DNA of 64,000 nt from an uncultured virus (IMG/VR IMGVR_UViG_3300033075_000216) (taxonomy: Duplodnaviria > Heunggongvirae > Uroviricota > Caudoviricetes). Below are positions 19,809 through 62,219 of this stretch, piece by piece (within the stretch, counting starts at the first letter, position 1; each line of letters opens with the position of its first letter). The stretch is taken from IMG/VR virus record IMGVR_UViG_3300033075_000216; one strand, 5' to 3'. A program made the position numbers and the translations under genes. Under the pieces are notes generated by a model. That model searched no databases. It saw only the letters and a list, made by a program, of their open reading frames with translations, and was not told where the DNA came from.

Positions 19809-19833
19809 TATTTATATTTCCTTTTTAATTATT

Positions 19834-22259: not shown

Positions 22260-22277
22260 AAAAAAATGCCTTATATC

Positions 22278-22290
22278 ATATAGTTGTTAA
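22278..22290 (-). promoter_or_regulatory. Putative late promoter motif (copy 3)
   Basis: Exact 13-mer, 18 nt before ATG 22259; heads the scaffold/capsid operon. Confidence 0.7.
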
Positions 22291-22407
22291 CAAATAAAAA
22301 TAATATTACAGCTATGTCAAATGCCAATAAGGCAAGAAACATATGCTTAAACTTACGAGAACTGTAGTAATATCGCTCTTTTATAGGCGTTTTAGTGGGG
22401 TTATATA

Positions 22408-22920
22408 CTATTCTCGCCACAGGCGCTTCCTAAGAGCCGCAAACTTACCTTCGTCTTTTGGTATAGCAGCCTCAACGTCTTCCGCTGTAATACCTTCCAT
22501 ATAGCTCTTCTTAGGCTTCATAGCCTTCGCAGCAAGCCCTTCGCCTTTAGCAATGGCAGCTTCGGCAGCTTCTTTAGAAAGATAGCTGGATGGAACGCCT
22601 CTTGAAGATATTCCTGCCATAACGTTACCTAGCATAGATTCAGCATACCGTCTATTAGCTTCTGACGCCTCTTCTGGGCTCATCTTAGTGGGTTGTCCTT
22701 GCATAGCCCTTATCTTGTCTTTCAAAGCCTCTGTGCTGTCATCCGAGAGCTTCTGACGCTCTTGGTCAGCTTCGTCCATCTTAGGTTTAAGCATGTTTTC
22801 ATAAAAAGCTGTCATTGTATCTGCAAGAGACTCTTTTTCAGATTCTTCAGGACTCTCTTCTAAATCAGGATTACCGAATACTCTGTTAAATTTCTTAGAA
22901 AGCTTTTCAAATTTAGGCAT
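22408..22920 (-). CDS. Hypothetical protein
   Basis: 170 aa, helical. Confidence 0.5.
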   Translation of the reverse strand: MPKFEKLSKKFNRVFGNPDLEESPEESEKESLADTMTAFYENMLKPKMDEADQERQKLSDDSTEALKDKIRAMQGQPTKMSPEEASEANRRYAESMLGNVMAGISSRGVPSSYLSKEAAEAAIAKGEGLAAKAMKPKKSYMEGITAEDVEAAIPKDEGKFAALRKRLWRE

Positions 22921-23351: not shown

Positions 23352-23501
23352 TTATTTTATAATAATTTTTAAAATCAGACCTAATATAACAATAGCTTCT
23401 AAAGCAATAATCACATAAAGTAAGTTATTTCTCTTTTTATAATGTTTGGTGTTTGCTTGCTTTAGAGCTGTAGCATCTTTATTGAATACAATCTTACCCA
23501 T
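23352..23501 (-). CDS. Small C-terminal TM protein (49 aa, not in ORF track)
   Basis: MGKIVFNKDATALKQANTKHYKKRNNLLYVIIALEAIVILGLILKIIIK; TAATG coupling. Confidence 0.5.
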   Translation of the reverse strand: MGKIVFNKDATALKQANTKHYKKRNNLLYVIIALEAIVILGLILKIIIK

Positions 23502-28717: not shown

Positions 28718-30799
28718 TTATTGTTGATTTAAAAGAACGGGGTTTTGTTGAAAAGGTGCGGGAGGAGAGGGTATGTTAGGAAGATTCACAGGCTGTTCCA
28801 TCCCAGGTCCCATTATCTCAGCTGGCATTTGACCTGCTTGTACCGCTTGCATTACAGAAGCATTCTCAGAAGACAAGCCTTGTGCTTGTTGAGGAGCTAC
28901 TTCAGAAGGCTGAGGTGCGTTCTGTTGAGGAGGAGGGATCGGAACTTGCCCAAGTACTTGAAGAAGTCTAGGATCAGTGTTCTGCAATAAGTCAATATGG
29001 TCGTATATGTGAGTAAGAACGTTTTGAACAAGAGTAGGATCTTTCTTAAGCTCTGGATCAAACAATACACTTTGATGACCTTTAATGTGTTTAACGTGAT
29101 CTTCAATAGCAACAGCCATAGGAAGATCGCCTGAGATGAGTTTTTCATTCTCTGCCCTGATTAACAATACTTCTTTTTGGACGTCTTCTGTAGCAGTTTC
29201 TAGTTTACCTGTATTAACAACAGATAGATACTGAGCTGGATCTTTTATTAGCTGATATTGTAAAAGAGACTCTGCAAGCTGAATCTTACCGCTGGTTGTG
29301 CGAGAAAGAGGATTAGCCATGTCTACAACAACGCGAGTAACGTTGCTTAGATCGTCGGCACTAAACTCTTTTACGTTAGTGTTGTTAGACACGCCTGAGA
29401 TGAGTGTTATGGTACGCTTCGTTACAGCGAAATCTTGCAACATCTTAACAAGAGATGTTCCCATGTCTTCAATAAGCTTAATATATTGAGATTGGAGGTT
29501 AGAAGCAAACTGAAGAGCTAAGCTTTGCACTAAGGCAAGAGCAGCGCCAGACTTAAGAGAAGACTCTGGATTACCGCGAGCAACACTGTTAACACCTGAA
29601 AGAGTTTCCATGTCTTTAATCATCATCTGAAGAAAATTAAATATCTCTGGAGGTGTGTTTGTTAAGTTTAAAGATTCAGGACGACCTGCGTTGGAGTTAC
29701 CTTCAATAACGTTAAGTCCGCCCTCAAGAGCGTTGATGGTAATGTCTGCTCCGCGAGGAACATAAATATTTTGTACACCAAACGCTGATTGGTTAGTCAT
29801 GATAGTACTATACAAACCGTTCACCGCCTCTTGAAGAGGAAGAAGATCGAACATAGGAGTGTATCCGTACGGAGTTCCTAGTAAGTCAGAAGGAGCAATG
29901 CGCAATACTGGAATAGTACGATATGGCATCTCTCCATCATAAAGAATAATGTCTTCTGCTAAGAACATCATGTAACGTCCTTTAGGCATGAATTCTGTAC
30001 GTTTATGATAAAATTCATATACAGCAACGTCGTCTGTATGTTCGGCAGTGAAGCCTGTAGAAAACTTAAACAAAATTTGATCTGACTTAGTTTGAAGACC
30101 TTTGATTTTGTTTTCAAGCTCTGGATAGCGAGCAGCTAAGTCATACTTATTCTTAAAGCTTCTTGTAACAACCCAGTCATGGTTCTGATCTTCTTTATAA
30201 GAATCAAACACTACGTCGAACGGAGAAAGATTGGTGAATTTAACGTCACCTTCGTACATAGGTTTTTCTGGGTCTAAATCTTCAGTGATAGAACCGTCAT
30301 CGTTTTGAATTTCTTTTGTTTCGTAGTCGTATATCTCACCGGCAATAGCGTCCCATTCCATCTTAATGAAACCGGCGCCGAATACGATAGCTTGTTCTAC
30401 AGCAGTTTTAATATAATATTCCATACGCTTCTCGCGCATGTAGTAGTCTAAGATACCGTTTGCTAGGATAGTTTGTACCTGAGACTTATAATCGGTGTTT
30501 ACAGCTCTAGCTTCCATAGCTGGTCTAGAAGAAGTGGTCATTACCAACATGTGCTGGGCTATGTTGCGGTAGTGATTTACTGGTATTTGAGCATACTCGC
30601 CTTGTTCGCCTCCGAACGTAATACTATGACCATATTGAACGTTGTCGTAGTAAGAACCGTAATAGGCTTTATACGAAGAAATCATCTTTTGTAGCCATCC
30701 GTTGGTCGAATGGAAGTTGTAGTATTGCCCTGCTCTTTGTAGAATAGTGGAGGCGCATTTCTGAGGTTCTTGGGCAGCGAAGTATTTAAATTGACTCAT
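28718..30799 (-). CDS. Portal protein (P22-like)
   Basis: 693 aa, directly after terminase; 'YGYTPMFDLLPLQEAVN', 'LSGVNSVARG...SGAAL'; Q/P-rich tail. Confidence 0.85.
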   Translation of the reverse strand: MSQFKYFAAQEPQKCASTILQRAGQYYNFHSTNGWLQKMISSYKAYYGSYYDNVQYGHSITFGGEQGEYAQIPVNHYRNIAQHMLVMTTSSRPAMEARAVNTDYKSQVQTILANGILDYYMREKRMEYYIKTAVEQAIVFGAGFIKMEWDAIAGEIYDYETKEIQNDDGSITEDLDPEKPMYEGDVKFTNLSPFDVVFDSYKEDQNHDWVVTRSFKNKYDLAARYPELENKIKGLQTKSDQILFKFSTGFTAEHTDDVAVYEFYHKRTEFMPKGRYMMFLAEDIILYDGEMPYRTIPVLRIAPSDLLGTPYGYTPMFDLLPLQEAVNGLYSTIMTNQSAFGVQNIYVPRGADITINALEGGLNVIEGNSNAGRPESLNLTNTPPEIFNFLQMMIKDMETLSGVNSVARGNPESSLKSGAALALVQSLALQFASNLQSQYIKLIEDMGTSLVKMLQDFAVTKRTITLISGVSNNTNVKEFSADDLSNVTRVVVDMANPLSRTTSGKIQLAESLLQYQLIKDPAQYLSVVNTGKLETATEDVQKEVLLIRAENEKLISGDLPMAVAIEDHVKHIKGHQSVLFDPELKKDPTLVQNVLTHIYDHIDLLQNTDPRLLQVLGQVPIPPPQQNAPQPSEVAPQQAQGLSSENASVMQAVQAGQMPAEIMGPGMEQPVNLPNIPSPPAPFQQNPVLLNQQ

Positions 30800-30818: not shown

Positions 30819-32258
30819 CTATAAAGATTTTTTTGGTTTAAAGATTCCTCTAATTTGACTGTATAGAGGGTTTTCACCAGCTTTATCGTTCCTGAAGAAC
30901 CAGCTTTGCTTGTCTTTAAAGTCAAAGTTGGCTGGATAGGGGTTCTTATTCCACTGAATGTTACGACACATGTAGATAAGCGCAGCAAGAGCGTCATAGT
31001 GGCCGCCGTCAGCTGATTTATCAAATACGCGTGAGTTTCCCGTCTTCCAGGTTGCTGATTTTAAGTGTGATATCAAATACTTACACTTAGGGCTTATTAT
31101 TATCTTCTTACTGTTAATCAAGACACGTACGTTATTTACAGCAGCTTCTAGATCATCTTTCTGTGTAGGCATGAATAAAACGTTATGAAGCCTGTGCATA
31201 TCGTTTATAAAGAATAAGTTGGTGTCTGATATACGAAGATAAGGTTCTTTCTTCTCACCTGTAGAAGTGAAATAAAGAAGAGAATTCTCCTTATTTATTA
31301 TAGCCTTAGCTAGCACCTCGGTATTAAAGTTGGGCGTTAAGTCCTTATTCATTACAAGCTCATCTTCAATAACAAGCCTGCTATGCTTAAAATCCATATA
31401 ACCGAATAATACTGCCGTAAAGTCCTTAAAACCGATATCGGCAGCTACGTAATAATCGAAGTATGGAGGTCTATTAACATCCTTAACACAATCCATCTCC
31501 ACTTCAGGGCTAAATTCTGGTATAACGCTACTATTAACGTCTACAACCATCTCAGCTAGATACTCTCGTCTAAACTCGTTATTCTTCATCCCGCCTTGAT
31601 ATTGGGAGATAATCTCGTTAACCTGAGCAGGGCTAAAACGTGTATTGTCAAAGATTGTCTTCTTTATTAAAGTATTGTCGTGCATCGCTTCTTTTACAAA
31701 CTGAGCGAAATCGTGACCTGGAGATCTTGGAGGAGTAGATGATAAGATTAGTTTTCCACCTGTCGTAGAAAGAGTGGGGAGAAGCACAGATCGCACCGCA
31801 TAAGAAAGATCGTCACAGAAGCCAGCCTCATCCACGATACATAGATGTGCAAGACCGCCTCGAAGATTCTCCACTCTTCCGTTATCAGTTCCTGCAAGCT
31901 GTATCTCACTACCATTAGGAAATACATATTTAGCGTCGTTCCTGTTGTAAGTGGGGCGTAAGGCTTTAGGGCAGTCTTCTAATATCTGTCTAAAGATGGG
32001 TTGAAGAATAGCTCTAATCATCTTTTGAGTAGGACAGAGATACTTAATGACAGTTCCAGGAGAAGCAAGACATGTTTCAATAGCCACTACAGAGAGTGTG
32101 TGAGATTTGCCAAAACGTCGAGAGCAAAGCCATGTAACAACACGCTTTTGACTTTTTTTATATAAATCGTACATCTCTTTCTGACCGGCATCTAGCTTCC
32201 AATGAAGGATGCCTTTTGCCCAGAGATTACTGATTGCTTGTTTCTTTGATATCTGCAT
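30819..32258 (-). CDS. terL: Terminase large subunit
   Basis: Walker A SRRFGKS, Walker B CIVDEA, coupling motif SSTP, nuclease motif AADIGFKD. Confidence 0.92.
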   Translation of the reverse strand: MQISKKQAISNLWAKGILHWKLDAGQKEMYDLYKKSQKRVVTWLCSRRFGKSHTLSVVAIETCLASPGTVIKYLCPTQKMIRAILQPIFRQILEDCPKALRPTYNRNDAKYVFPNGSEIQLAGTDNGRVENLRGGLAHLCIVDEAGFCDDLSYAVRSVLLPTLSTTGGKLILSSTPPRSPGHDFAQFVKEAMHDNTLIKKTIFDNTRFSPAQVNEIISQYQGGMKNNEFRREYLAEMVVDVNSSVIPEFSPEVEMDCVKDVNRPPYFDYYVAADIGFKDFTAVLFGYMDFKHSRLVIEDELVMNKDLTPNFNTEVLAKAIINKENSLLYFTSTGEKKEPYLRISDTNLFFINDMHRLHNVLFMPTQKDDLEAAVNNVRVLINSKKIIISPKCKYLISHLKSATWKTGNSRVFDKSADGGHYDALAALIYMCRNIQWNKNPYPANFDFKDKQSWFFRNDKAGENPLYSQIRGIFKPKKSL

Positions 32259-32923: not shown

Positions 32924-33034
32924 AACCTAACCTTTTAATTTATTGTGAGTATATCGGCGACGTAACAGGCGTTTGAGTTGTTTAAATGGACTATATGTCC
33001 TTATATTCCTTATTGTCAGAGGAGTACACTCATA

Positions 33035-33047
33035 ATATAGTTGTTAA
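33035..33047 (-). promoter_or_regulatory. Putative late promoter motif (copy 5), start of the packaging operon
   Basis: Exact 13-mer at the strand switch. Confidence 0.7.
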
Positions 33048-33548: not shown

Positions 33549-33790
33549 CCTTATTGACAGGAGCTTGCGGAGTTAAGGTATCTTCAGATCCTGTAAAGGT
33601 TGAGCGTGTCACTGTTGATCATAATATCAACATAAATCTACAGAACGTAGCCCTTTACTACCGTGGTGTTTGCGAGCTGGAGCTTACTAAAGCACCTCCA
33701 GAACCTGCGCCTACTGAACAAGAGATACAAGCGTGCGTGGATAAGAAGGTGATTGACTTTAACAACGCTTATAACTTTGGCGGTATCTAG
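33521..33790 (+). CDS. Putative lipoprotein
   Basis: Hydrophobic signal and lipobox-like LTGAC. Confidence 0.55.
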   Translation: MGIIFITILALLTGACGVKVSSDPVKVERVTVDHNININLQNVALYYRGVCELELTKAPPEPAPTEQEIQACVDKKVIDFNNAYNFGGI

Positions 33791-34470
33791 TGCGTTTTTT
33801 TAGGGAAGCGACGCCTTACGCAACTGTCTATTATAAAATGGAAGGTATTCGTATATTTCTATTTATATACTGGTATAAACCTGCGGTATGGATGGATACG
33901 GATGAACTACTCAGCTACGGTGGATTATTAGATAGCGCAAAAGAAATAACCTCAGCAGTAAATTCTAAATACGGGAGACTCAAGTATAAACATTTATTAG
34001 AAGCTAAGAATGTTTCATATCATGAGCTATACGAAGATTGATCAGATATTATAAAATACCACGAGCACAATTACTGTACAAAGTTCACGGAGATAACTTT
34101 TACTTTGTAGCAGAGTGGCCCGAGGAGCCTTTGTGGGTACCTTTAAAAATATACTATTTAGACGCTCTTTTATCTAGAGGCGCAAAAGACGTCACTTCTA
34201 TTATAAACTCTAAATGGGGATTGCTTAAGTATGGACGTTTAGTGTCAGCTAAAGAGAGAGATTGTGAGATATTATAAAACAAAAGATGGGGATGTTTTTT
34301 ATAAGCTAGATGGGAGATATTTATATGTTTTTTTTCCGTCAAAAGTTTGGCGTTTTATATCAGAACCTATGCATATACCGAGCATTCCAGAAATTACTAG
34401 AATACTAACTACTAAGTATGGTAAGATTAAGTATAAACATTTATTAGAAGCTGAAAATAAGGAGTGGTAA
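33790..34470 (+). other. Three paralogous small CDS (33790-34041, 34038-34277, 34264-34470) with the shared C-terminal motif
   Basis: NSKYGRLKYKHLL / NSKWGLLKYGRLV / TTKYGKIKYKHLL; identical 24-bp DNA at 33982-34005 and 34429-34452. Confidence 0.65.
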
Positions 34471-34685
34471 TGAAAACGCAAGCAAATTTTACTAAGGTGT
34501 ACATTAATAACGAAGGAAAACTGACATCTTCGCCTGTTCGTTGGGAGAAGGATGAAGAAGGTAAGCCAAAACTCGTAGACAACACTCCAGCGCTAGACGA
34601 TACAGGCAGACAAAAGATCGCTCCTTTAAATAGGCGCGCTAGGCGTGCGATGAAGAGTAAGAAATGGGGAGGACCTCTACTGTAA
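34464..34685 (+). CDS. Hypothetical protein
   Basis: 73 aa, contains a basic NRRARR motif. Confidence 0.5.
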   Translation: MVMKTQANFTKVYINNEGKLTSSPVRWEKDEEGKPKLVDNTPALDDTGRQKIAPLNRRARRAMKSKKWGGPLL

Positions 34686-35215
34686 TGGGACTCAACGGAA
34701 ATAATAGAGAGTATGAATATAAGTTTACTAGCACGCAAGCAATGAACACGCTTGCTTCTGTCATCAAAGCCAACTTTAAGGTTATAGGCACTAAAAAAGG
34801 ATCTTCTTATGATATCTTCTGGGAACCTAAGATAACAGATACCTGTGACTTTGTACGTTTGCGACACTTTGATAAGATTAAAGGTGAGCTTACACTGAAA
34901 CACACAGATAAGTCTACAATACGTGATAGGTTTGAAGTGGATGTTCCCGTGTCAAATACAGACCAAGCTCGCATACTACTCACCATGGCGCTAGGTAAAC
35001 CAAAGGGCGACTTGTATAAGATATTTACTGTATACTTTTTAGACAAGTTTGGTACAAACATCTCCATCTATCAAATAACCAAAGATAATGTTGTTTTCGT
35101 CGAAGTGGAAAGTAACACTATGAAGAAAGCAAGAAGAATAACAAATCAACTTAAAAAATTACTTAAATTAAAAGTTGAAAATCGCAGCTTGTATACGATA
35201 TACTTTAAGTCATGA
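34685..35215 (+). CDS. CYTH-like (triphosphate tunnel) protein
   Basis: ExExKF (EYEYKF), VRLR, LTLK, RFEVDV, FVEVE. Confidence 0.75.
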   Translation: MGLNGNNREYEYKFTSTQAMNTLASVIKANFKVIGTKKGSSYDIFWEPKITDTCDFVRLRHFDKIKGELTLKHTDKSTIRDRFEVDVPVSNTDQARILLTMALGKPKGDLYKIFTVYFLDKFGTNISIYQITKDNVVFVEVESNTMKKARRITNQLKKLLKLKVENRSLYTIYFKS

Positions 35216-35406
35216 GAGCGTTAGTTATCTGCAACTATTGCGGACATAAGATTAAGTTTACAAACTCTTACGGGGCGCCAACAGCATGTTGGAGGTGTAA
35301 GGGTACGGATTTGGAGATAAAGAAATATGACGGCAATCAATACGGCTACGAAGAAGATGAAAAAGAAGACAATGTACCAGACGATGGATATACAGTACTC
35401 GATTAA
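35212..35406 (+). CDS. Zn-ribbon protein
   Basis: CNYCG...CWRC. Confidence 0.55.
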   Translation: MRALVICNYCGHKIKFTNSYGAPTACWRCKGTDLEIKKYDGNQYGYEEDEKEDNVPDDGYTVLD

Positions 35407-35577
35407 CAGCCTTAATGATAAAGGCTACATTGTAGACTTTATGCAGAAGATGGACGACACTTGGGCAGTGTGTGTCACTAATAAACATAGCGGACGTAAG
35501 TATGTTACAGAAGCTAAGTCAATTACTTCGGCGTTGAGTGTTGCTGTAGGGGCTATTGAGAAGGAGAATAATGCTTT

Positions 35578-36270
35578 ATGCTAAGTGCTAAGGAAGACGT
35601 TCTACGCGAGCATGTAGATCAAGATAGACAGATAGTTATAGATAGGTTTCCTTCTAAATGGTCCACTGGCAATGGTCTTATGACCACAGGCCTGTTCTAC
35701 ACCTTATGTAGCTTGCTTGGAGACATTGACGACGCTGATAGAGATAGATTTGAAATTGCTGTGATGCTTTGTCAACAAGATCCTGGGGTGTACAATAGAA
35801 ACCCAAATAGACGTGATGCTAATGCTCACGACGACGTTGTTGGGGTTGTGGCAGCTTCTGTCATGATGAATGAAACCTTTCACATTGATGTCCTGACACA
35901 CGGAAGAACTAATAAGTTTATATACAATAATACAGAAGATACAAGCTTTACAAGAAATACGCCAAACATGACTAAGTGGCAATGGTGGAGCTTTCGTTTA
36001 AGGTTTCCTTTTGAAATTCTATGGTATTATATTGTGAATAATCAGTTAACGGTTTTAAAACCTATTTTATACTTACAGCTAATGTCACATAAATCATCAG
36101 ACTATCATGCAATACTAAACATGATGAGGTTTGTCAGTGCGTTCGGTCCATCCAAGCGCTATTTTACAGAACGTCGTAAAAGGGACATTAAGTTTGCAAT
36201 GGCAGACTATTTCAAATCAGTCTATCATCCGATGTATAAACTTATGGCAGCGTTTTTAGACACTGTATGA
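35578..36270 (+). CDS. Hypothetical helical protein (230 aa)
   Basis: AAGGAG RBS; no motif recognised. Confidence 0.55.
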   Translation: MLSAKEDVLREHVDQDRQIVIDRFPSKWSTGNGLMTTGLFYTLCSLLGDIDDADRDRFEIAVMLCQQDPGVYNRNPNRRDANAHDDVVGVVAASVMMNETFHIDVLTHGRTNKFIYNNTEDTSFTRNTPNMTKWQWWSFRLRFPFEILWYYIVNNQLTVLKPILYLQLMSHKSSDYHAILNMMRFVSAFGPSKRYFTERRKRDIKFAMADYFKSVYHPMYKLMAAFLDTV

Positions 36271-36602
36271 TTTGCGAATGCGGAGCCTGGAAAGCCGAGC
36301 AACCAGGGCATAGTTTTTGGTGTCAATGTTTTGAGAAAACACACTACCAATGTTTTAATATGTTGGACGGTAAGCGTGCTTACTATGTCACAAACGACAC
36401 ACTCAAGATTGACTACGGAAAAAATTCATTAAACTATATATCTTATAACAAGACAATAGGAACAGTGGAGAGTTTTAGAAACTATGTGTCTAATGGTAAT
36501 ATACCTGATATAGTGTTTATAGAAAGACAAGCGGATCCACAAAGAGATCTTTTTTACGAAATATCTTTCGCTCTAACAAACACTACGATATACTACATTT
36601 AG
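36267..36602 (+). CDS. Hypothetical protein with N-terminal CxC...HxxWC motif
   Basis: CECGA......HSFWC. Confidence 0.5.
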   Translation: MICECGAWKAEQPGHSFWCQCFEKTHYQCFNMLDGKRAYYVTNDTLKIDYGKNSLNYISYNKTIGTVESFRNYVSNGNIPDIVFIERQADPQRDLFYEISFALTNTTIYYI

Positions 36603-36612
36603 GAGAAGGGAC

Positions 36613-36828
36613 ATGAACAAACAATTATTTCAAACGCTAGTAAGAGGAACAGTTACATTATACGAAGACATCTTAATGGAAGAGCTTAAGTATAGAGAAA
36701 AAGACAACACCATATTCTATAATAAAAAACGTCGAATTGTTACTGAAGCTTTAAGACAACAACTTATTAAAGACATTGAAGTGGCGGCTGCGGACATTCA
36801 TCGCCATTTTAATGACACCACTCACTAG
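36613..36828 (+). CDS. Hypothetical protein
   Basis: AGGAG RBS. Confidence 0.45.
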   Translation: MNKQLFQTLVRGTVTLYEDILMEELKYREKDNTIFYNKKRRIVTEALRQQLIKDIEVAAADIHRHFNDTTH

Positions 36829-36831
36829 AAC

Positions 36832-37221
36832 ATGAAAATATTAGTCATAGCACAAAACCCGTCTAAGAAAAACTTAGATGTTAATGTTCCTTTAGTTGGG
36901 ACAAAGTCATTGAAAATCTTTCTAGCTTGGTGTAAAGAGATGTTTATAGAAGAGTGCTTTATTATAAACGCTTCTGACAAACTAGGTAAGGTTTCGCTAA
37001 AGGACGCTAACCTTGAACGCATACAGAAACATGTGGTTGATGGGGGTTACGATAAAATTGTATGTCTAGGTAAGTATGCGGAGAAGAGTTTAAAGAAAGC
37101 TTGTCCGTACATTCGCCACTACACACTACCTCACCCCTCTGGTTTAAATAGAAAATTAAACAATAAGCACTATGTTAAAGCCGAATTAACAAACTGCTTA
37201 AGGTATTTGGTGGAGCCGTGA
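36832..37221 (+). CDS. Uracil-DNA glycosylase-like protein
   Basis: ILVIAQNPS, IVCLG, LPHPSGLNR. Confidence 0.75.
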   Translation: MKILVIAQNPSKKNLDVNVPLVGTKSLKIFLAWCKEMFIEECFIINASDKLGKVSLKDANLERIQKHVVDGGYDKIVCLGKYAEKSLKKACPYIRHYTLPHPSGLNRKLNNKHYVKAELTNCLRYLVEP

Positions 37222-37637
37222 GATATCTTATACAGAGTGTAATATTTCACATGCTTCCGTTATTACTGTTGCTCTTACAGGGCGGAGGAACTGGTAACGG
37301 AGACTACGAGTCTTACGATGATATAACAAAACGCGGAGGGCAAGATGGCGCTAAAGAAGAAACGGTGGAAGTGGAAGGCCTAGTGCCTCATGCTGACGAG
37401 CCGTGTGAGCATTTCTACGGCGGTATTGGTATAGTGCATGGAGCGGGTAATAAGATTGAAACTGTATATCCAGGTTACCCTGCGGACCTTGCTGGCATGG
37501 AAGCTGGTGATGAGATTATTTCTCCCGAAAGTGATATACGAGGGGAAATTGGTACAGAAGTTGCAATAGTGTATAAGAACAAAACTGGTAAAATAATTAC
37601 TTTACGATTAATTCGAGATAAAATTTGCACAAGATAG
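37218..37637 (+). CDS. Membrane-anchored PDZ-domain protein
   Basis: YGGIGI...VYPGYPADLAGMEAGDEI...IRGEIGTEV, like the PDZ of C-terminal processing proteases. Confidence 0.75.
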   Translation: MRYLIQSVIFHMLPLLLLLLQGGGTGNGDYESYDDITKRGGQDGAKEETVEVEGLVPHADEPCEHFYGGIGIVHGAGNKIETVYPGYPADLAGMEAGDEIISPESDIRGEIGTEVAIVYKNKTGKIITLRLIRDKICTR

Positions 37638-37673
37638 CGAGTAGTGTTAATTTAGTTTTAAAGGAGAAGGGAA

Positions 37674-38747
37674 GTGAATATAAAAGAAGTTCAAGAAGCA
37701 GTTAGGTTAATCCACGAGCATACAAACGTTACACCTATTCTAGTGGGACATCACGGAAAAGGTAAGTCCCAAGTTATACAACAAATTGCAAAAGAGGACG
37801 GCGTTGGTTTTATTGATTTGCGTCTAAGCACACAGGAAACCGGCGATCTTCTAGGTCTTCCTGAAATTATTCGCGACCACGAAGGTACTCCTGTTGCTAC
37901 AACGTTTATGAAGCCAAACTGGTTTCCAACAGAAGGACGCGGCATATTGTTCCTAGACGAGTTCAATCGTGCTAAGAAAGATGTGTTGCAGTCTATGCTT
38001 CAACTTGTTTTAGATAGACAATTTCACACACATGTTCTTCCTGAAGGCTGGAAGATTGTTGCTGCGTGTAATCCTGAGACAGATGACTATCCTGGTCTTG
38101 CTATTGATGACAAAGCCCTTATCGATAGATTCTGTTACATTAAATTTGAACCCACTGTAAACGAGTGGTTGTCTTTTGCTGAGTCTCAAGGCGCAAGCCC
38201 TGCTATCTTAGGCTTTATTCGTAAACAGCCTGAGATGTTAGAAGGTAAGCTTGAAGAGTTTTCTTTAGATTTCGTAGAGCCTTCTAGACGTTCTCTTCTC
38301 ACTCTAGCAAAACTACACAACAAGATTAAAGACAATCCTCTTTTTAAAGAAATTGCTTTCGGTATGATCGGTATTACAGCAACTGCTGCTATGATGAAAC
38401 ACATTCAAGAAAACGAAGTGTCTATTAGTGGCATGGAGCTACTTGCTAACTATCACGGAAATAAAGAGCTTATTGAGAAGCTTGTGACAAACTATCGAAT
38501 GGATGTCCTTAATACAGCAATTGATGAGATTGTTGCTAAACAAGACATCATAATCCAACATCACACTAATAATCTAAAACCTCTACTACTCGCTATTCCA
38601 GCCGAAGTGGGAATTAAACTATATAACCTATTAGAGAACATTCTCATGGAAGTAGAAAACGAAGATATTCTTTCCTACTTTAACGACGATGATTTGGTAA
38701 ACCATTTCGCCGCTGAAGCCGAGAAGACAGATGAGCCTCAAGAATAA
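37674..38747 (+). CDS. MoxR-like AAA+ ATPase
   Basis: Walker A GHHGKGKS, Walker B LFLDEFNR, IVAACNP, DKALIDRF. Confidence 0.85.
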   Translation: MNIKEVQEAVRLIHEHTNVTPILVGHHGKGKSQVIQQIAKEDGVGFIDLRLSTQETGDLLGLPEIIRDHEGTPVATTFMKPNWFPTEGRGILFLDEFNRAKKDVLQSMLQLVLDRQFHTHVLPEGWKIVAACNPETDDYPGLAIDDKALIDRFCYIKFEPTVNEWLSFAESQGASPAILGFIRKQPEMLEGKLEEFSLDFVEPSRRSLLTLAKLHNKIKDNPLFKEIAFGMIGITATAAMMKHIQENEVSISGMELLANYHGNKELIEKLVTNYRMDVLNTAIDEIVAKQDIIIQHHTNNLKPLLLAIPAEVGIKLYNLLENILMEVENEDILSYFNDDDLVNHFAAEAEKTDEPQE

Positions 38748-39837
38748 GTTTCAACAGGCGCTTTATAAAACTGTAAGTGATTATCCATATTACGGAAGTG
38801 TTATACTAAATTTACCAATTGAGTTTACAGATAAAATTCCCACTATGGGCATTACAGCCAAGGGTAAACTTAAACTCGTTGTTAATTTAAATTTTCTAGA
38901 ACCTTATTCCATAGAAGATTGTGTTAAGTTCATCATACACGAAGCTCAGCATATAACAAACGGACACGTCCTTCGTGGAAAAGATCTAAACCATCAACAG
39001 TTTAACATAGCGGCGGACATTGCAATAAATCAGAATATTAAAGATATGCCAGACACAGGGGCCAATGAAGTAATGTTTGCAACATTAAACAACGCTAAAA
39101 AGCATAGTCCTGATTTGCTACCAAATAAGCCTGCTGAGTATTATTACAACAGTATGCCCGAAAGCACTACTGTCGAATTAACCACATCTGACATTCACGA
39201 TTGGCTAGAAAGTGACATGATCGATGAAGAGATGAAAGAGCAGCTTCGCGACATACTAAAGAAATCAGAAGAATATGCTAAGGCTGTTAGCTCGTCAGTG
39301 CCTCCGGAACATCACACAACTATAAACGAACTAGCTCCTCCTAGACTATCTTGGAAAGCTCTTCTAAGACGCTTTGTCACTTCTGTTACAAGCATTGAAA
39401 CAGAAGAAACTAGGAAAAAACGTCACAGACGCTATGGAACACTTCACCCAGGGAACAAACGTCTGGAGAAAGTAAATCTCGGTGTTGCTGTGGACACTTC
39501 TGGCAGCATATCTGACGAAGAACTTCAAATGTTCATGTCTGAGATAAACGCCATTCACAAGCAAGGCGTAGAAATTACCCTCATCGAATGTGATGCTGAA
39601 GTGAGAAACGTATCTAAATTTAGTCCTAAGAAGAACAAAACCTTCAGCGGACGCGGAGGCACAGCCTACCAACCTGCCTTTGATAAAGCTAGAGAACTTG
39701 GCGTAGACGCTATTGTGTTCTTTGGTGACGGAGACAGCGCAGACACTCCCACTAAACCACGCTATCCGGTTCTTTGGGTTATGGTTAGAGGCAACGAACC
39801 GCCAGTGACATGGGGACGTGTGTCGAAGCTGTCTTAA
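38731..39837 (+). CDS. Metallopeptidase-VWA protein (DUF2201-like)
   Basis: HEAQH, FNIAADIAIN, MIDAS DTSGS, GRGGT, FGDG. Confidence 0.85.
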   Translation: MSLKNKFQQALYKTVSDYPYYGSVILNLPIEFTDKIPTMGITAKGKLKLVVNLNFLEPYSIEDCVKFIIHEAQHITNGHVLRGKDLNHQQFNIAADIAINQNIKDMPDTGANEVMFATLNNAKKHSPDLLPNKPAEYYYNSMPESTTVELTTSDIHDWLESDMIDEEMKEQLRDILKKSEEYAKAVSSSVPPEHHTTINELAPPRLSWKALLRRFVTSVTSIETEETRKKRHRRYGTLHPGNKRLEKVNLGVAVDTSGSISDEELQMFMSEINAIHKQGVEITLIECDAEVRNVSKFSPKKNKTFSGRGGTAYQPAFDKARELGVDAIVFFGDGDSADTPTKPRYPVLWVMVRGNEPPVTWGRVSKLS

Positions 39838-39840
39838 GAC

Positions 39841-40675
39841 ATGTCTCCCACTTACTTAACAACGTTAGATCTCCCGCCTAATTTAATAGTGTCTGTTGAC
39901 GTAAACTTCACTCATGGAAGCCTTGTCGTGTTTGTCTACACTACAGATAGAACTGTTGTCAATCGCATCGATGTAGATTGGGCGGTTATGTACAATACAC
40001 CCAAACTGGAAGCTGTGGTTAAAAACACACCCTTATATAAACTATATGATTCTAAGTATTATAGAAAAAAGCATACCAAAAAATCTTAGGTTTCACACTC
40101 GATACGCGACCAGCTCCGACTCCTATATAATATCCCTATTTTATAATAAAAGAATACAACAGTTTGAGGTGGCAATGCCTATAAACGAAGAGGGTATGCT
40201 TGAGGCTATAAAACAATGTATTCTGTACAAATTAGCAACAAGTAAATGGGGGATGCGTGCTTCTGACAGACTTTGAGAGAATGGTGAAACAGCATAATCC
40301 TGATATAAGACTTTTCCACGACTACTATCAGGAGCATGTCGTAGTGTTTTCTGACAAGTATAGCTATATAATTGACTTTTATAGAGTGTCTAGTGGAAAC
40401 CTACCTAAGTCGTTTTATAGGTTTCTAACTGTTTCGTCGTCTAAATGGATAAAAAGGAGAATGTTGTGTCAAAAGAAGAATTTGAAGACTTGGTGATGAA
40501 AACACATCCCAAGCTGTTCCTGGTGACGTATGATCACAAAGACGTCGTAGGACTATACTACAACGACACTTACTTGTTCGATGTAACAGGATATGAGTTG
40601 GCGCAACCTCAGCTACCCGATAGAGTAAGGCGCATATTAAAACTATGTAGTACTAAGTGGGCTCGTCTGCCTTAG
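39841..40675 (+). other. Four small CDS (39841-40089, 40046-40276, 40257-40496, 40445-40675) with the shared C-terminal motif
   Basis: DSKYYRKK / TSKWGMR / SSKWIKRR / STKWARL. Confidence 0.55.
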
Positions 40676-40832
40676 GGCGATATTTCTTCCTTCCCCACTT
40701 GGTGTTGTCTCTTATGTTTTTAAACCTTTTAAGACGAGGAAGCAGGTCGTCTCGTTCATGAGGCTCTAATATACCAATCATAACCAACACCTCAAGTTCA
40801 TGCTCTATTTCTTCAAGCTCGCCGCTAAACAT
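40653..40832 (-). CDS. Small protein (59 aa, not in ORF track) with the shared motif
   Basis: MFSGELEEIEHELEVLVMIGILEPHERDDLLPRLKRFKNIRDNTKWGRKKYRPKADEPT. Confidence 0.55.
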   Translation of the reverse strand: MFSGELEEIEHELEVLVMIGILEPHERDDLLPRLKRFKNIRDNTKWGRKKYRPKADEPT

Positions 40833-41100
40833 TTTGACGAGTCTTCTTATTCATACATTTCTTAGAACACATACGAGCCGTGTGTCTGGCAGGGGTGAAG
40901 GTCTCCCCGCATATAACGCACGCCTTGGGGGCATGGCTGCGTTTAACGTAGCCGGTACGAAGCCTACCCTTAAAACAGTCATAGCACGTCCTACCGTGCC
41001 ATTGGCCGCCGTTATCATCGATGTAGACGAAGTTACGCCCTTCTGTCACACCCTTTAATACATACTGCTTCTCTACATTACAAATTTTACAAGTTCTCAT
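40825..41100 (-). CDS. Double Zn-finger protein
   Basis: CKIC, CYDC, CVIC, CSKKC; directly after late motif copy 6. Confidence 0.7.
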   Translation of the reverse strand: MRTCKICNVEKQYVLKGVTEGRNFVYIDDNGGQWHGRTCYDCFKGRLRTGYVKRSHAPKACVICGETFTPARHTARMCSKKCMNKKTRQNV

Positions 41101-41103
41101 ATA

Positions 41104-41116
41104 ATATAGTTGTTAA
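41104..41116 (-). promoter_or_regulatory. Putative late promoter motif (copy 6)
   Basis: Exact 13-mer, 3 nt before ATG 41100. Confidence 0.65.
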
Positions 41117-41144
41117 TTGCCTGTAAAAATCCTATACTGTTATT

Positions 41145-41844
41145 ATGAAGAAGGGTGACTTAGTGATATTCCGCACTCCTTGGGACGACTCGCGCAGTTT
41201 AGGTGTTCTTGTAGAAGATGTGACCTCTAAACATGTTCATATATTCATATTGAGTGATGACTTGCGCTGCCCTCGTTATTCTGTAGTTTCAGCTGATTGT
41301 TTAACCCTTATAGAGTGTAAGTGGCTTCGCTATAAGAATAAGACCCTTATAGATAAGGTAACCTTAAAATGAAGAAAGGTGACCTTGCGTTTACAACTTC
41401 TCCTTGGGATAGAAGTTTATGCATATTAGCGGAAGACGTGGTATCGGAGTATGTTCACGTGTATACCGTTAAATGGGGAGTTATAGCTACCAGAGACGAG
41501 CTAACTGTCATAGAATGTAAATGGTTGAAGCTTAAATATAGAAAATATGTAGACGATGCTAAACAAGGACGTTTGTCATGAAACTTGGAGACCTGGTGAT
41601 GGTTACCCGAGAAGATAGATATGGCTATGGCCTGGTGGGGGTGTATGTCAGCCCTTATTATACAAACCTAGCCAGGGTGCACTTCCGCAACCACGAACAC
41701 TCTGGATTATATAGTATCAGTGCTTTAAGGGTTGTAAACTGTAAATGGTTAGAGTATAAGTATAGAAAGGAGATAAATTATGTTAAAGAGAATGATAGAG
41801 CGTTTAAGGAACTTATTGATGAATTTAAGAAACAGGGCGTCTGA
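41145..41844 (+). other. Three paralogous KOW/SH3-like small CDS (41145-41372, 41369-41581, 41578-41844)
   Basis: MKxGDL N-termini; [IV][EN]CKWL..K C-termini. Confidence 0.6.
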
Positions 41845-42151
41845 GGTTCAAGAAGCCCTACCCTCTCCTCCGGCTACTTATAACGAGGTGGCTAACGTAA
41901 ACACTGTTACTATTAGAGTGTCGTTGGATAATGGTTTATTCGTCAATAAAGTGTTTGAATCTCGCTGGGATGCTGATGGTCATCTAGAGGAATCTGCACT
42001 GGAGCAGTATGAAGGCTTCAAACGTGACCTTGCGTTTAACTCCGGGAAAGGATTCTTTAAATTAGAGAATGTAGCCCACTATGCAGGGGTTACAAAGATC
42101 GAAGAGTTTTACGCAGTGAGCACAGTGACGGTTACCAGGAAGGCCGCGTAA
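41780..42151 (+). CDS. Hypothetical protein
   Basis: AAGGAG RBS; 123 aa. Confidence 0.5.
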   Translation: MLKRMIERLRNLLMNLRNRASEVQEALPSPPATYNEVANVNTVTIRVSLDNGLFVNKVFESRWDADGHLEESALEQYEGFKRDLAFNSGKGFFKLENVAHYAGVTKIEEFYAVSTVTVTRKAA

Positions 42152-42181
42152 GCGCTAACGCCTTACAGCCTGACACTGTTT

Positions 42182-43167
42182 ATGACCATACATTATGTAC
42201 GCCTAGACAAGACAGGCTATTACATCGTGCATCAAGACAGCCGCACCTACTTACTTCACTTAGACGACAACAGAGCTTTGGAGATATTGAATACAAAGTT
42301 TATGAAAAAGAAGTTATATCGCATTAAACATCTTATAACATTAGCAGATGTCTACAAGGGGATAAAGCTTGAAGATACTTAGAGTGCATGTAGATCCTAA
42401 TCATATCGTTGTGTTATATGACGACTGGACAATAGCCACCGACCATAGTGCTAGAGCAAAGTTATATACGATTGATAACTTAATGGATTATGACTATTTT
42501 ATGAACGGTAGGATATGTAAAAACATTACACATATTTATACGACAAAGTGGGGACGGAGAAGATATGGGAAAAGACTTAACGTCTTACAGCTTAGCATTG
42601 GTTTATGAAAATATACAAGATGTCTAAAATTCCGCCTACTTACGTAGTTGATATTCCCAACCTGGTAAGATTAGTTGTTGTTGAAAGAAATAGACGCGGA
42701 AAGTATATTCTTCAAAAAAAACCTGCTACAGAAATAGAAATTAGACTTTGTAAGCTATTGAATACAAAGCACTATCGCAATAGGTTGAATAGATTATGAT
42801 ATTACGAGCGCACATAGGTGAGGAAAGAATTAGCATCTTACAGCTCGGCATTGCTCTCCCCACCTTCGGACAAGATATGAAGATATATAAAGTAATGTGG
42901 TTTTCAGCTTGTAATAAGGTAAAGGAGCAAGACTTATTAATAAATACTAGAAACAATTGGTTTAAATATACAAACAATGAGCTTATTAGTATTCCTACTT
43001 GTACAGAGATGTTACATTTTTCAGATGATGTGTATAGCATTAGTTGTAAGTGTACTTTTATGTGTAGGATTCTTATAAAGCCCAAGTTAAATATAAATAA
43101 CACTAAATGGCATAGGATTAAACATAGAAAGCTATTCATTGCTATAGAGGGACTTAATGCATTATGA
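42182..43167 (+). other. Four small CDS (42182-42382, 42369-42608, 42605-42799, 42877-43167) with the shared C-terminal motif
   Basis: NTKFMKKK / TTKWGRRRY / NTKHYRNR / NTKWHRIKH. Confidence 0.55.
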
Positions 43168-43487
43168 AGATAGCATGTTTAAGGCCTCTAGCAGGCTGTC
43201 TGTTGAACGTAAACAGAGTGGTTGAGGGTAAGGTAGCAACCAGGGTGTGTTTGTGGCTATAGAGGGGAAACAGGTGCGGGAGGAATGAAGGTTTTACAGG
43301 GTGATGTTTTCTCAAAGTGGTGGAGAGGGTATAAGTCTATTCCCACTCCCCCTCAAACCTCCCCTACCCCCCTGGCATGCCCGCTGGATAAAACAAGACA
43401 GCATACGTTTTGCTTTCGCAAAGCCGTGGTGTTGGTTGACAACTAGGTTAGATTAGGCTAACATGTTAATAAGGTGTATGTTTTATG

Positions 43488-43505
43488 TTGGCATGCTTTT
43501 TGCAA
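43488..43505 (+). promoter_or_regulatory. Sigma-54-like -24/-12 element
   Basis: TTGGCATGCTTTTTGCAA, GG-N10-GC; no clear downstream ORF. Confidence 0.45.
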
Positions 43506-43989
43506 GACAACGTGTTTTCGTTTGATGAAAGCAAGTTATTGTAATTCTTAGTAAGAAGGTTTAAGTATTGAGAATGTTTAAGGAATAAAAACGTATTGGA
43601 GATGTATTGCACTAACCCTCTCCTTCCTTCCCTCTTCTCTCCTCTTCCATGTCTTCATCCAACCACATGTCTTCGTTGTATATATTCATTATAGAAACAC
43701 ATATAAACCTGTACAGCTATGTTATTGACATGCTTAGATATTGGTGTCTCGCCCTCACTTGATGGTTCGGGCTACAAAACAACGGGAAGAATGCCCGAGA
43801 CGTGCGAACGTATTACAAGCTCTTGGCTTGTCGCTAGACAAACGAACTGGGCGTCGCTTGACGCGCGCCGGTTGCGACTGTTCGCTAACATGCTTATGTT
43901 TAAGATATTCTGTAATATACAGAGACTCAATAGCTCAGCGAGCCAACAAAGGCGAGCGATAGTGTTTAAAACAAAGTAGGGTTTACTAG

Positions 43990-44481
43990 ACATACCAGTC
44001 CCAATAATGCCTAATTGTTCATGGGCAAGTTGTTGCTGTTGATAAAGAATACCAACCTATATGCTTTCCTTTTACCTAGCCCGGAAAGTTAGGGCTTCCT
44101 TGATTTTGTAACCGTGTATTTCTTACCCTGTAAGTTCATTACACTCACTACAGATAGATGACACGAACAATAGGTTTTCAAGGTACCATGTAGAGCCTTT
44201 TGGGTTTACACTCGTGTGGCTTCTGGTAGGACATTTATCCTATTCGTCCAGTATGTGGCCTACAGTCTATTTGATAGTAGGTCCCACGGTGCATGTCTCT
44301 CTACATTGCCCTGGCTACCACGACAAGTGTCTTTTGGTGCTTGCCCCACGCTCTGAGCCAGATCTTAGCATCATCCAAGCTTGCGGCTTGGCGGGTACGT
44401 TCTATTACCATGCCAGACTAAACGTACAACTTTCTGACAATATGCTTAATACATTAACACTGCCGGTGACACAGTGTCAAT
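43990..44481 (-). ncRNA. Candidate large structured ncRNA
   Basis: Begins right after late motif copy 7; many nested stems; three stems give G-U pairs on minus but A-C mismatches on plus. Confidence 0.5.
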
Positions 44482-44494
44482 ATATAGTTGTTAA
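44482..44494 (-). promoter_or_regulatory. Putative late promoter motif (copy 7), not followed by an ORF
   Basis: Exact 13-mer. Confidence 0.6.
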
Positions 44495-44553
44495 TTCTCC
44501 AAGATATTCTTATGGTGACATTTTACGTCAATACAACAGTAATAGTTTCGCGT

Positions 44554-44651
44554 GGTTCAAAAATTGTCAGACATTCGTCTAAGTCTTAAACACATAAACT
44601 ACATCCAACCTCTTGATGTTCTTAGCCGCGCGTTGTGGCACAGCACATGCA
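44554..44651 (+). promoter_or_regulatory. Sigma-54 promoter with conserved upstream box (early 1)
   Basis: TGGCACAGCACATGCA (GG at 44637); box AAATTGTCAGACATTCGTCTAAGTCTTAAACA. Confidence 0.6.
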
Positions 44652-44664
44652 TTAGCTTATATAC

Positions 44665-44766
44665 ATGAACGCTTTATTAAACCTAACAATAGCGATAGTA
44701 ATAATGGCCGCTTGTTTCTATGTTCATCCTGTTCTTGGCATCATTAGCGTTTGGGCTTTGTTATAA
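44665..44766 (+). CDS. Small hydrophobic protein (33 aa)
   Basis: MNALLNLTIAIVIMAACFYVHPVLGIISVWALL, just after the sigma-54 site. Confidence 0.45.
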   Translation: MNALLNLTIAIVIMAACFYVHPVLGIISVWALL

Positions 44767-47007: not shown

Positions 47008-47637
47008 GTGAAACATTACAAGTTGACAGATGAATATATAGAAAAAGCAGGTAGAAAACTTTATAGAATACAGGCAACTGTAGACATGCCGCAACATGGT
47101 GTGAAGGCAGGAGACCTTGGCGGGTTTGTGGAATCATACGAAAACTTGTTAGGAAATGCGTGGGTTGCAGACAATGCTAAGGTTTTTGATAATGCACGGG
47201 TTTTTGAAAATGCAAAGGTTTTTGGAAATGCGCAGGTTTCTGGAAATGCACGGGTTTTTGAAAATGCGCAGGTCTACGGAAATGCGCGGGTTTCTGAAAA
47301 TGCTAAGGTTTACGGAAATGCGCTGGTTTACAGAAATGCTTTGATTACAGATAACTCTACGGTTTATGGAAATGCGCGGGTTTATGGAAATGTGCAGGTT
47401 TATGGAGATGCCTGGGTTTGCCTAGGAAATATATCAAAACAAAACCAGCTTTCAACATTTCAAATAGGAAAAGGTTTTCATGCAACGGTAACACCTAAAC
47501 ATGCTACAATAGGGTGCACAACAAAAACACATAAAGAATGGTTAAAGGTTACAAAGAAACAAGCTGTTAAAATGGGTTTACCAGCAAAATTATATAATGT
47601 TTATAAGTCTACATTAAAAGCTGTAATAAGGAGGTAG
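47008..47637 (+). CDS. Hexapeptide-repeat (left-handed beta-helix) protein, paralogue 1
   Basis: LYRIQA..DMP.HGVKAGDLGGFVESYENL plus (GNAxVx)n. Confidence 0.75.
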   Translation: MKHYKLTDEYIEKAGRKLYRIQATVDMPQHGVKAGDLGGFVESYENLLGNAWVADNAKVFDNARVFENAKVFGNAQVSGNARVFENAQVYGNARVSENAKVYGNALVYRNALITDNSTVYGNARVYGNVQVYGDAWVCLGNISKQNQLSTFQIGKGFHATVTPKHATIGCTTKTHKEWLKVTKKQAVKMGLPAKLYNVYKSTLKAVIRR

Positions 47638-50232: not shown

Positions 50233-50737
50233 CTTTTGGTGTAAAGATAATAGTCACAAAGATTTCACAGGAACAAACTTGATTGATAACATCGGACATT
50301 CTGAAGCTGTTGTCAAGGCAATTCTTTTAAATATGAATGTAAAACGCTTCTGCATCACTATGTTTAAATGGTGGGATGGGATGTATTCGGCTGCACATGT
50401 AAAATCGTATAGCAATTCCCTGAAAAATTTGGATAAAATTCGGTTTGTCACAATTGCGGCATCGGGTTCGGGATATATTTCTGAAGAATATAATGCATTA
50501 AAATCTTTAATAAATAAAAATGTAACTATTGTAGTAGCTGCAGGAAATGATCATAAAAATTTAGATAAAAGTTGCGACGTCTATCCAGCATGTTATAATT
50601 TGGATATGGTTGTGGCTTCAGATAATGTTAAAAGTAATTATGGAAGTGTTGTAGATAAATATGTAAGTGTTATAATAAACAATCAAACAGGTTCGTCTTT
50701 AAGTGCCGGGTATGTCACAGGGCAGTTAGCAAAATAG
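50060..50737 (+). CDS. Minimal subtilisin-like (S8) protease; start uncertain
   Basis: VVIDSG (D), GHSE (H), VAAGN (oxyanion N), TGSSLSA (S). Confidence 0.7.
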   Translation: MCVITEECWVEIKQILKVMVMCLGFAMPIESSHSLTYVREERNRIVVIDSGMFDANADFWCKDNSHKDFTGTNLIDNIGHSEAVVKAILLNMNVKRFCITMFKWWDGMYSAAHVKSYSNSLKNLDKIRFVTIAASGSGYISEEYNALKSLINKNVTIVVAAGNDHKNLDKSCDVYPACYNLDMVVASDNVKSNYGSVVDKYVSVIINNQTGSSLSAGYVTGQLAK

Positions 50738-50756
50738 AGAGAAGGGAGAGAACTAA

Positions 50757-56248: not shown

Positions 56249-56714
56249 TTATCTTAAACAAAAACGTGAAGAGACGTGTGTTTCTGTTGCAATTATAAAT
56301 GCGTTAAAATGGGCAGGATCTAAATCTGTATCTGATAAACATGTAAAGTCCGTTCATCGCCTTATATGGAAGAATAAAACATACACACAAATATCAAACA
56401 TAAGAAATGTTTTAAAAAAATGCACAAAGTATTTTTCAGCAGTATATAAAAAGCATCCTACAGTAGAAGAGCTACTTTCTCACTTAGAGAAAGAAAATAC
56501 GGCCTTGCTTTTCAGCTATTTCTTTAGGCATCATAACGATGAGATAGAAGAGGGTCATTGTATTCTTGTACTAAAACACTCCCCAAATAAACTTGTACTT
56601 GTAAACGAATCTTTACAAAAACCTGTAAAAATAATAACACTTAAAACGTTTAAAAGTAAATATATGAAAAAAACCGAGTGTTATCCGGATGCTTTTTTAT
56701 TGGAGAAAGTATAG
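56229..56714 (+). CDS. C39-like cysteine peptidase
   Basis: Q.....C...AIINAL; GHCILV; LVN. Confidence 0.6.
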   Translation: MYYKGVNYLKQKREETCVSVAIINALKWAGSKSVSDKHVKSVHRLIWKNKTYTQISNIRNVLKKCTKYFSAVYKKHPTVEELLSHLEKENTALLFSYFFRHHNDEIEEGHCILVLKHSPNKLVLVNESLQKPVKIITLKTFKSKYMKKTECYPDAFLLEKV

Positions 56715-62211: not shown

Positions 62212-62219
62212 TGGAAGAT

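Follow-up and report, generated by a model that had tools for sequence, protein, structure and literature searches.

A lysine-aromatic motif shared by fifteen small proteins in a phage gene array suggests a common binding helix

The uncultured tailed-phage record IMGVR_UViG_3300033075_000216 was analyzed over 64,000 nucleotides (the window), which belong to a 79,003-bp contig from an uncharacterized phage. Between positions 33790 and 43167, this window contains a block of small genes, 15 of whose products carry the motif [S/T/C]-K-[W/Y/F/H] with basic and aromatic residues behind it. The motif is real and statistically solid. The reading that we favor, with a probability of about 0.45, is that the block would be a lineage-restricted array of duplicated early mini-proteins, in which fast-diverging and mostly β-rich front parts are combined with a conserved basic/aromatic binding helix.

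An original prediction made from the DNA letters had proposed that about 15 small proteins share this motif, and all 15 open reading frames (ORFs) are indeed present with the peptides that it had quoted; its coordinates denote gene starts and not motif positions. An ungapped alignment reads h-x-h-h-[NTDSE]-[STC]-K-[W10 Y3 F1 H1]-x-[basic 12/15]-x-[basic 13/15]-[Y/H 9/15], where h is hydrophobic and Lys is the sole column that is invariant among the 15 proteins. Gly directly follows the aromatic residue in 6/15 and Asn precedes the Ser/Thr/Cys in 7/15. In our reading of the alignment, the hydrophobic positions −6 and −4/−3, together with the aromatic residue at +1, extend one helical stripe. 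The motif is situated 7–34 residues before the stop codon and thus in the C-terminal third of the proteins, yet it is not terminal, and the last three residues are different in all 15. The net charge of the tails, counted from the Ser/Thr/Cys to the end, is +1 to +7, and that of the front parts −5 to +8.

The proteins are 59–96 residues long and comprise at least five sequence groups (A to E), with members of the same group arranged in contiguous runs (Table 1). A BLAST comparison among the 15 sequences united group A (33790, 34038, and 34264), group C (41145, 41369, and 41578), and the pair 40257/40445, and weakly tied 42369 to group A (E 4e-5 in this 15-sequence database). Using hhalign, 11 subgroup alignments that included orthologs were compared in 55 pairs. 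Similarity across groups was confined to 10–25 motif columns, the best such link being between A and E (85% probability over 10 columns), and one of the 55 pairs, 40257–40445, aligned over its full length (60 columns). Profiles of the N-terminal parts produced no match outside their own group. At the level of sequence, no relationship can be detected between the front parts of different groups, and the proposal of a variable front part joined to a common motif fits these comparisons. With respect to the alternative that the members are full-length homologs, no whole-length similarity across groups was detected, 40257–40445 excepted.

The tripeptide is present in 15/23 small ORFs of the block vs 5/46 small ORFs elsewhere in the window. 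Composition-preserving shuffles of the in-block proteins afforded a mean of 3.27 tripeptide-containing proteins (standard deviation 1.61, maximum 10 in 2000 trials), and the enrichment over shuffled controls that the original prediction implied was therefore found. Requiring in addition that at least three of the next six residues be basic or aromatic left 12/23 proteins vs 0.85 expected (maximum 5 in the shuffles). A profile hidden Markov model (HMM) of 18 columns was constructed from the 15 segments and run against all 893 ORFs in six frames with 30 or more residues. The members scored 19.6–26.0 bits, the next frame 12.7 bits, and all others at most 6.8 bits; no copy was found beyond 44.6 kb, as had been claimed. 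Because this gap between members and non-members is partly built in, each group was left out of the model in turn, upon which 11/15 members still ranked within the top 6 of the non-training frames (ranks 1, 3, and 4 for A; 1 for E; 1, 2, 4, and 6 for D; 2 and 3 for two of the four members of B; and 3 for one of the three members of C). In a control search of a 43-kb Silvanigrella phage record (604 frames), the motif HMM reached a maximum of 5.2 bits.

The constraint on the motif acts on the protein and not on the DNA. Its codons are synonymously variable (AAA/AAG for Lys; TCT/AGT/ACT/ACC/ACA/TGT for Ser, Thr, and Cys; GGG/GGA/GGT for Gly), and the same peptide is encoded by the minus-strand member (40653-40832); together these observations place the signal in the protein. 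The motif segments of group A have 61–74% DNA identity (repeat family D12). That the peptide is merely a by-product, in an overlapping frame, of a signal in the nucleotides (a promoter, terminator, ribosome site, or coupling element) is exceedingly improbable. This alternative was rejected, as it is contradicted by the variable synonymous sites. At 40257 the motif codons do overlap the AAGGAG and start of the next gene, but third-codon positions are free to vary, the distance to the next start is anywhere from 7 to 34 codons, the aromatic position is encoded by TGG, TAY, TTT, or CAC, and a promoter/terminator scan located 31 promoter-like sites against 34.1 expected, which is no excess.

Structure prediction suggests where the motif lies in the fold. 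The AlphaFold model of group A (34264, 9-row alignment; predicted local distance difference test [pLDDT] 87, with 2/5 models confident) is composed of four strands followed by short helices at residues 45–49, 51–56, and 58–61. The model of group B (40046, 7 rows; pLDDT 81) consists of a helix, three strands, and three helices. In both AlphaFold models the motif Thr or Ser (T50 in A, S66 in B) is the sole non-helical residue between two helices, so the motif is predicted to cap or kink a helix within the fold and to continue as a basic helix. For group C, the ESM Atlas model (41369, pLDDT 0.67) has structural neighbors at template modeling scores of 0.58–0.70 that include NusG, KOW, and SH3-type clusters, all below the search tool's bar for naming a fold; going by these neighbors the group may be an SH3/KOW-like barrel, and a Pfam search retrieved no family for it at E up to 0.1, KOW and SH3 included. 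The group D model, also from the ESM Atlas, is of low confidence, and the front part of group E appears by eye to be all-helical, with no strand-like part. Across the two AlphaFold models and two low-confidence Atlas models, the elements follow a similar order, with strands ahead of helices, but differ in number.

Orthologs recovered from short ENA and Logan contigs cover 11/15 genes; in the same contigs none was found for 40257, 40445, 42182, or 42605. The tripeptide is retained in 18/18 ortholog pairs, the single change being Tyr to His and within the allowed set, and the motif 9-mer is identical at 133/161 positions (83%) vs 835/1155 (72%) for the remainder. A related 68.5-kb contig, from the contigs of a second study, is collinear with the window at ∼85–90% DNA identity. 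The UDG gene (36832-37221) is missing from it, with a joint from 36827 to 37223, as are 531 nt of group C (41341-41873), in whose place stand 1042 other letters; this exchange points to fast turnover of the array. In this comparison of sequences, 36832-37221 and 41341-41873 are gene-turnover hot spots within the block.

By the sequence searches made here, the array is an undescribed and lineage-restricted gene set. A HMMER search with group A among 1.84 billion representative proteins returned five matches, namely the window's own three members, the relative P0030 (LSKWGKIKY), and a repetitive artefact (P0031), and at this level family A is only four clusters among those representatives. At the DNA level, GenBank phages yielded no match to the block, and tblastn of two members against them gave best E values of 2-3. 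No relative was found in IMG/VR with the AAA protein of the block as query or with group A (60 pattern matches, a number that a rough uncomputed estimate puts near chance), nor in JGI metagenomes. Two contigs from metagenome-assembled genomes (L002 and L003) encode large terminases 46–47% identical to that of the window; the motif was not seen in them, but their sequence does not span the equivalent block. Among family databases, Pfam had no match for 14/15 proteins and one sub-threshold match, PHROGs gave two weak matches, both to families of unknown function, and NCBIfam gave two meaningless weak matches for 18 scanned proteins. A search of PDB sequences with the motif profile had a best E of 0.46. 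Fold searches of the PDB (VIA-align wide) reached a best Z of 4.1 for group A and 5.3 for group B (hibernation factor, T7 Gp1.2, and AcrIF24), each under the noise guide, and neither model matched an entry of BFVD at E up to 0.001. We found no paper on the motif in a limited literature search that was not aimed at its letters.

A shared binding helix is favored because the Lys, the aromatic residue, and the basic and Tyr positions resemble a surface for ligand contact that stays constant while the rest of the protein drifts. Small early phage genes would have been duplicated in tandem from one ancestor, which would be the simplest origin of the array. In each product, an amphipathic helix would end in a polar pair whose Ser, Thr, or Cys serves as cap or kink, and a second helix would open with the invariant Lys and the aromatic residue and continue with basic and aromatic residues (K-W-x-R-x-K-Y). 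This rear element would be the working surface common to all members, with the Lys, the aromatic ring, and the subsequent Arg, Lys, and Tyr in contact with one shared target. We infer a binding role for the helix; the target would most probably be an anionic ligand (DNA or RNA) or else one host hub protein. The variable fronts would add a different second specificity to each member, as in host-takeover or counter-defense sets. It is also conceivable, though doubtful, that the array is a library of adaptors in which at least 15 unrelated fronts plug via the same helix into one machine (nucleoid, ribosome, RNA polymerase, or protease) or into the phage MoxR/VWA-peptidase pair; were this true, many cargoes or inhibitors would converge on one site, with rapid exchange of members between relatives.

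Several results weigh against a shared binding helix on duplicated early proteins. Our analyses identified no binding partner or ligand, and searches near the array turned up no recurring RNA or DNA element as a candidate shared target (no Rfam family and no repeated hairpin). The aromatic residue may sit buried in the core, in which case part of the conservation would be structural. Early expression of the array would follow from gene order, its sole basis, and common descent is not demonstrable by hhalign or the N-terminal profiles, which show none between groups. Finally, 40046, 40257, 41145, and 41578 rank outside the top 8 when their own group is excluded from the motif HMM; the cross-group motif is thus loose for groups B and C and strong for A, D, and E.

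The proteins could instead be one diverged paralogous family with a single fold, of which the motif is the best-kept structural core (helix cap and core aromatic) without any shared ligand. The tandem runs in the same orientation, the similar sizes, the strands-then-helices order in A, B, C, and D, the BLAST link from group A to 42369, the place of the aromatic residue in the hydrophobic stripe, and an identity only moderately higher in the motif than in the remainder would all be accommodated. This explanation is nonetheless unlikely, given that only a Lys is invariant and that the positions conserved behind it are basic, a pattern unusual in a purely structural core, that the predicted architectures are unlike (a four-strand meander, a helix plus three strands, and an SH3-like barrel, with a group E front that is strandless by eye), and that no N-terminal similarity was detected across groups. 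Targeting to the inner face of the cytoplasmic membrane by the basic/aromatic helix has little probability. Its composition of Trp/Tyr and Lys/Arg would suit such a role, and the best-scoring non-member (23352-23501) has the motif immediately ahead of a stretch resembling a membrane span; however, over the 11 residues from the Lys the hydrophobic moment is 0.16–0.75 and below 0.45 in 11/15 proteins (no reference set was scored), a modest amphipathicity that weakens this explanation, and the mean hydrophobicity is −0.92 to +0.07, negative in 14/15. The Gly that follows the aromatic residue in 6/15 proteins, and the prediction of the segment as part of a fold and not as a free tail, also argue against a membrane anchor.

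The original prediction had suggested that the motif is a common C-terminal docking tag, which might be read by a phage hub encoded in the same block, such as the PDZ protein or the pair of MoxR-type AAA protein and DUF2201 peptidase-VWA, or might target a membrane or host complex. The AAA/VWA pair does lie inside the array, directly ahead of group B, and the motif is found on unrelated-looking fronts, one of its carriers being apparently all-helical and another possibly a membrane protein. The designation as a C-terminal tag has nevertheless to be abandoned, for the motif is internal, at a variable distance from the end, and inside confidently predicted helices. PDZ domains bind free C-termini, and the C-terminal residues here are unconserved; moreover, a signal-like hydrophobic segment opens the PDZ protein but none of the mini-proteins. 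Metal-ion-dependent adhesion sites of VWA domains typically take acidic ligands, and the motif is basic. The motif HMM matches nothing in the AAA, VWA, or PDZ proteins, and a complex prediction for the VWA-peptidase with group A scored 0.01 (mark 0.32), which counts neither way. Adjacency aside, no result links the three proposed readers to the motif, and docking to them is improbable. Among other candidates, a free C-terminal docking or degradation tag (PDZ ligand, ssrA-like, or clamp tail) was rejected on the distance of the motif from the stop codon and the unconserved last three residues. Self-cleavage of the Nup98 or intein type at Asn-[S/T/C] was rejected with Asn in only 7/15 proteins and the catalytic domain absent, and a WGR domain with no Pfam match.

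Table 1. Motif-bearing genes, candidate further copies, and landmark genes of the window
Feature	Positions	Strand	Length (residues)	Motif segment	Remarks
Group A	33790..34041	+	83	NSKYGRLKY	orthologs P0003, P0007 keep motif
Group A	34038..34277	+	79	NSKWGLLKY	orthologs P0005, P0030
Group A	34264..34470	+	68	TTKYGKIKY	modeled, helix break T50; orthologs P0006, P0008, P0010
Group B	39841..40089	+	82	DSKYYRKKH	4 nt past VWA gene; ortholog P0019 has DSKHYRKKH
Group B	40046..40276	+	76	TSKWGMRAS	modeled, break S66; orthologs P0022, P0023
Group B	40257..40496	+	79	SSKWIKRRM	full-length link to 40445; ortholog not found
Group B	40445..40675	+		STKWARLP	ortholog not found
Group E	40653..40832	−	59	NTKWGRKKY	orthologs P0027-P0029
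Group C	41145..41372	+		ECKWLRYKN	MKKGDL start, putatively SH3/KOW-like; ortholog P0015
Group C	41369..41581	+	70	ECKWLKLKY	Atlas model neighbors; ortholog P0016
Group C	41578..41844	+	88	NCKWLEYKY	ortholog P0014
Group D	42182..42382	+	66	NTKFMKKKL	ortholog not found
Group D/A-like	42369..42608	+	79	TTKWGRRRY	top motif score, 26.0 bits; ortholog P0009
Group D	42605..42799	+	64	NTKHYRNRL	ortholog not found
Group D	42796..43167	+		NTKWHRIKH	ortholog P0026
Candidate 16th copy	23352-23501	−	49	NTKHYKKRN	just before transmembrane-like stretch; 12.7 bits, best non-member
Candidate degenerate variant	34464..34685	+		KSKKWGGPLL	ends in this segment (extra Lys); by eye; outside top 45 of motif HMM
PDZ protein	37218-37637	+			inside array; proposed reader
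MoxR-type AAA	37674-38747	+			inside array; proposed reader
DUF2201 peptidase-VWA	38731-39837	+			inside array; proposed reader
Major-head-protein match	17033-17971	−			structural arm
Portal	28718-30799	−			structural arm
Large terminase	30819-32258	−			minus-strand arm

Two of the gene starts probably differ from those in Table 1. From the DNA and the paralog, 40445 probably starts at a GTG a few codons later, behind AAGGAG. The last member (42796-43167) probably starts at 42877 and has 96 residues, because its ortholog P0026 has 94 residues and begins MKIYK. The front of this protein (42877-43164) and that of P0026 weakly resemble residues 79–119 of the phage's own PD-(D/E)XK nuclease (60399-61493), with pairwise BLAST E values of 3e-5 and 6e-4 and a profile E of 0.0054 among the 893 frames (uncorrected for 11 profiles); this resemblance may reflect a gene-fragment copy or chance. 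The start of the group E gene has an 8-nt overlap with a minus-strand gene for a 91-residue zinc-ribbon-like protein with four CxxC pairs (40825-41100), and the two form an inverted two-gene cassette inside the plus-strand array. In the structural arm, the candidate 16th copy and a second minus-strand ORF, 22271-22420, encode paralog-like 49-residue membrane mini-proteins, in which MxxIV(F/Y)N... is followed by a hydrophobic span.

The nearest GenBank phage by terminase, Silvanigrella phage CP017838.1, is only 30% identical in this protein. The structural genes, tail and decoration proteins among them, form a minus-strand arm at 1.9–32.9 kb. From 33.0 kb on, apart from the inverted cassette, all genes are on the plus strand. 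The array opens this arm and encloses the UDG, PDZ, MoxR-type AAA, and DUF2201 peptidase-VWA genes. It is preceded by a divergent region that contains a sigma-70-like site (33013-33041); farther downstream are genes for a lytic transglycosylase, DNA polymerase A, exonucleases, the PD-(D/E)XK nuclease, and an ERF recombinase. From this gene order, the block would be the promoter-proximal portion of an early/replication arm.

A repeated core, ATATAGTTGTTAA (minus-strand form TTAACAACTATAT), is located at 1883, 15952, 22273, ∼30800, 33030, and 44477. At least three copies of ATATAGTTGTTAA/TTAACAACTATAT lie directly 5′ of minus-strand start codons, and the repeat may serve as a phage-specific promoter or leader. 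One of the copies, at 44477, falls in an ORF-poor gap. Two stretches, 43167-44720 and 50737-52585 (∼1.5 and ∼1.8 kb), are without convincing coding-strand ORFs; no tRNA and no Rfam family was found in either, and the first has weak repeats only. Six plus-strand paralogs of ∼170–230 residues (47008-47637, 54765-55403, 56678-57196, 59405-60049, 61493-62188, and 62211-62858) are scattered among the replication genes and share the start MK(H/R)YKLT...GRKLYRIQA. The one of the six that was scanned, 47008, matches the β-solenoid repeats of YdcK, and the 18-nt periodicity of these paralogs is visible as DNA repeat families D1-D4. The major head protein is seemingly split (17033-20304, minus strand). 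ORF 17033-17971 covers only C-terminal positions 163–368 of the 396 of the major-head PHROG, and a LAGLIDADG homing endonuclease (18435-19250) separates it from ORF 19834-20304, with repeats D9 and D18 flanking at 18033-19654. The gene is probably interrupted by one or two introns; Rfam reported no intron at 17033-20304.

The main unexplored source of host-machine inhibitors and counter-defense factors lies in the small early proteins of phages, which are hard to study because they are usually orphans. Here, 15 orphans are tied by one element with an invariant Lys, so that a single target assignment could cover the whole set, and the array could show whether phages diversify one binding helix over many bodies.

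Comparison with known systems reveals partial likenesses. The arginine-rich RNA-binding helices of lambda N and of human immunodeficiency virus Tat and Rev are short, basic, and portable and contain an aromatic residue; the motif described here is likewise predicted to lie in a short basic helix that includes an aromatic residue, on positively charged tails, but it has a fixed S/T-K-aromatic start, and the surroundings of the array yielded no cognate RNA hairpin. The membrane-targeting amphipathic helices of MinD and FtsA, which lie near the C-terminus, have a similar aromatic and basic composition, in contrast to which the segment here has modest amphipathicity and is embedded in a predicted fold. 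T4 gp43, gp33, and gp55 carry clamp-binding C-terminal tails, such that one short peptide on unrelated proteins is directed to one hub. The array shares with them the short peptide on unrelated-looking proteins; those tails, however, are hydrophobic, strictly terminal, and disordered, whereas the motif here is basic/aromatic, internal, and helical. We know of no common motif across the host-takeover genes of SPO1, and in this respect the array, with one motif uniting 15 genes, is different. The SPO1 host-takeover module is described as a cluster of many adjacent small early genes whose fold is unknown (10.1101/569657), and it is like the array in having many small, probably early genes side by side.

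By analogy, the nearest described logic appears to be that of the T-even internal proteins. In those proteins the capsid-targeting sequence is located at the N-terminus; it sends them into the prohead, and the prohead protease cleaves it off. The motif described here is instead internal, in the C-terminal third, and in helices, and its genes are situated on the presumed early/replication arm; no prohead protease was recognized among 24 structural-arm proteins. Nonetheless, IPI, IPII, and IPIII are described as diverse, defense-countering proteins with the capsid-targeting sequence as their only common part (PMC3012670), and the statement in the original prediction that no described system has this form is too strong. 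In this respect the two sets are alike, each consisting of small and diverse phage proteins that have one short peptide in common.

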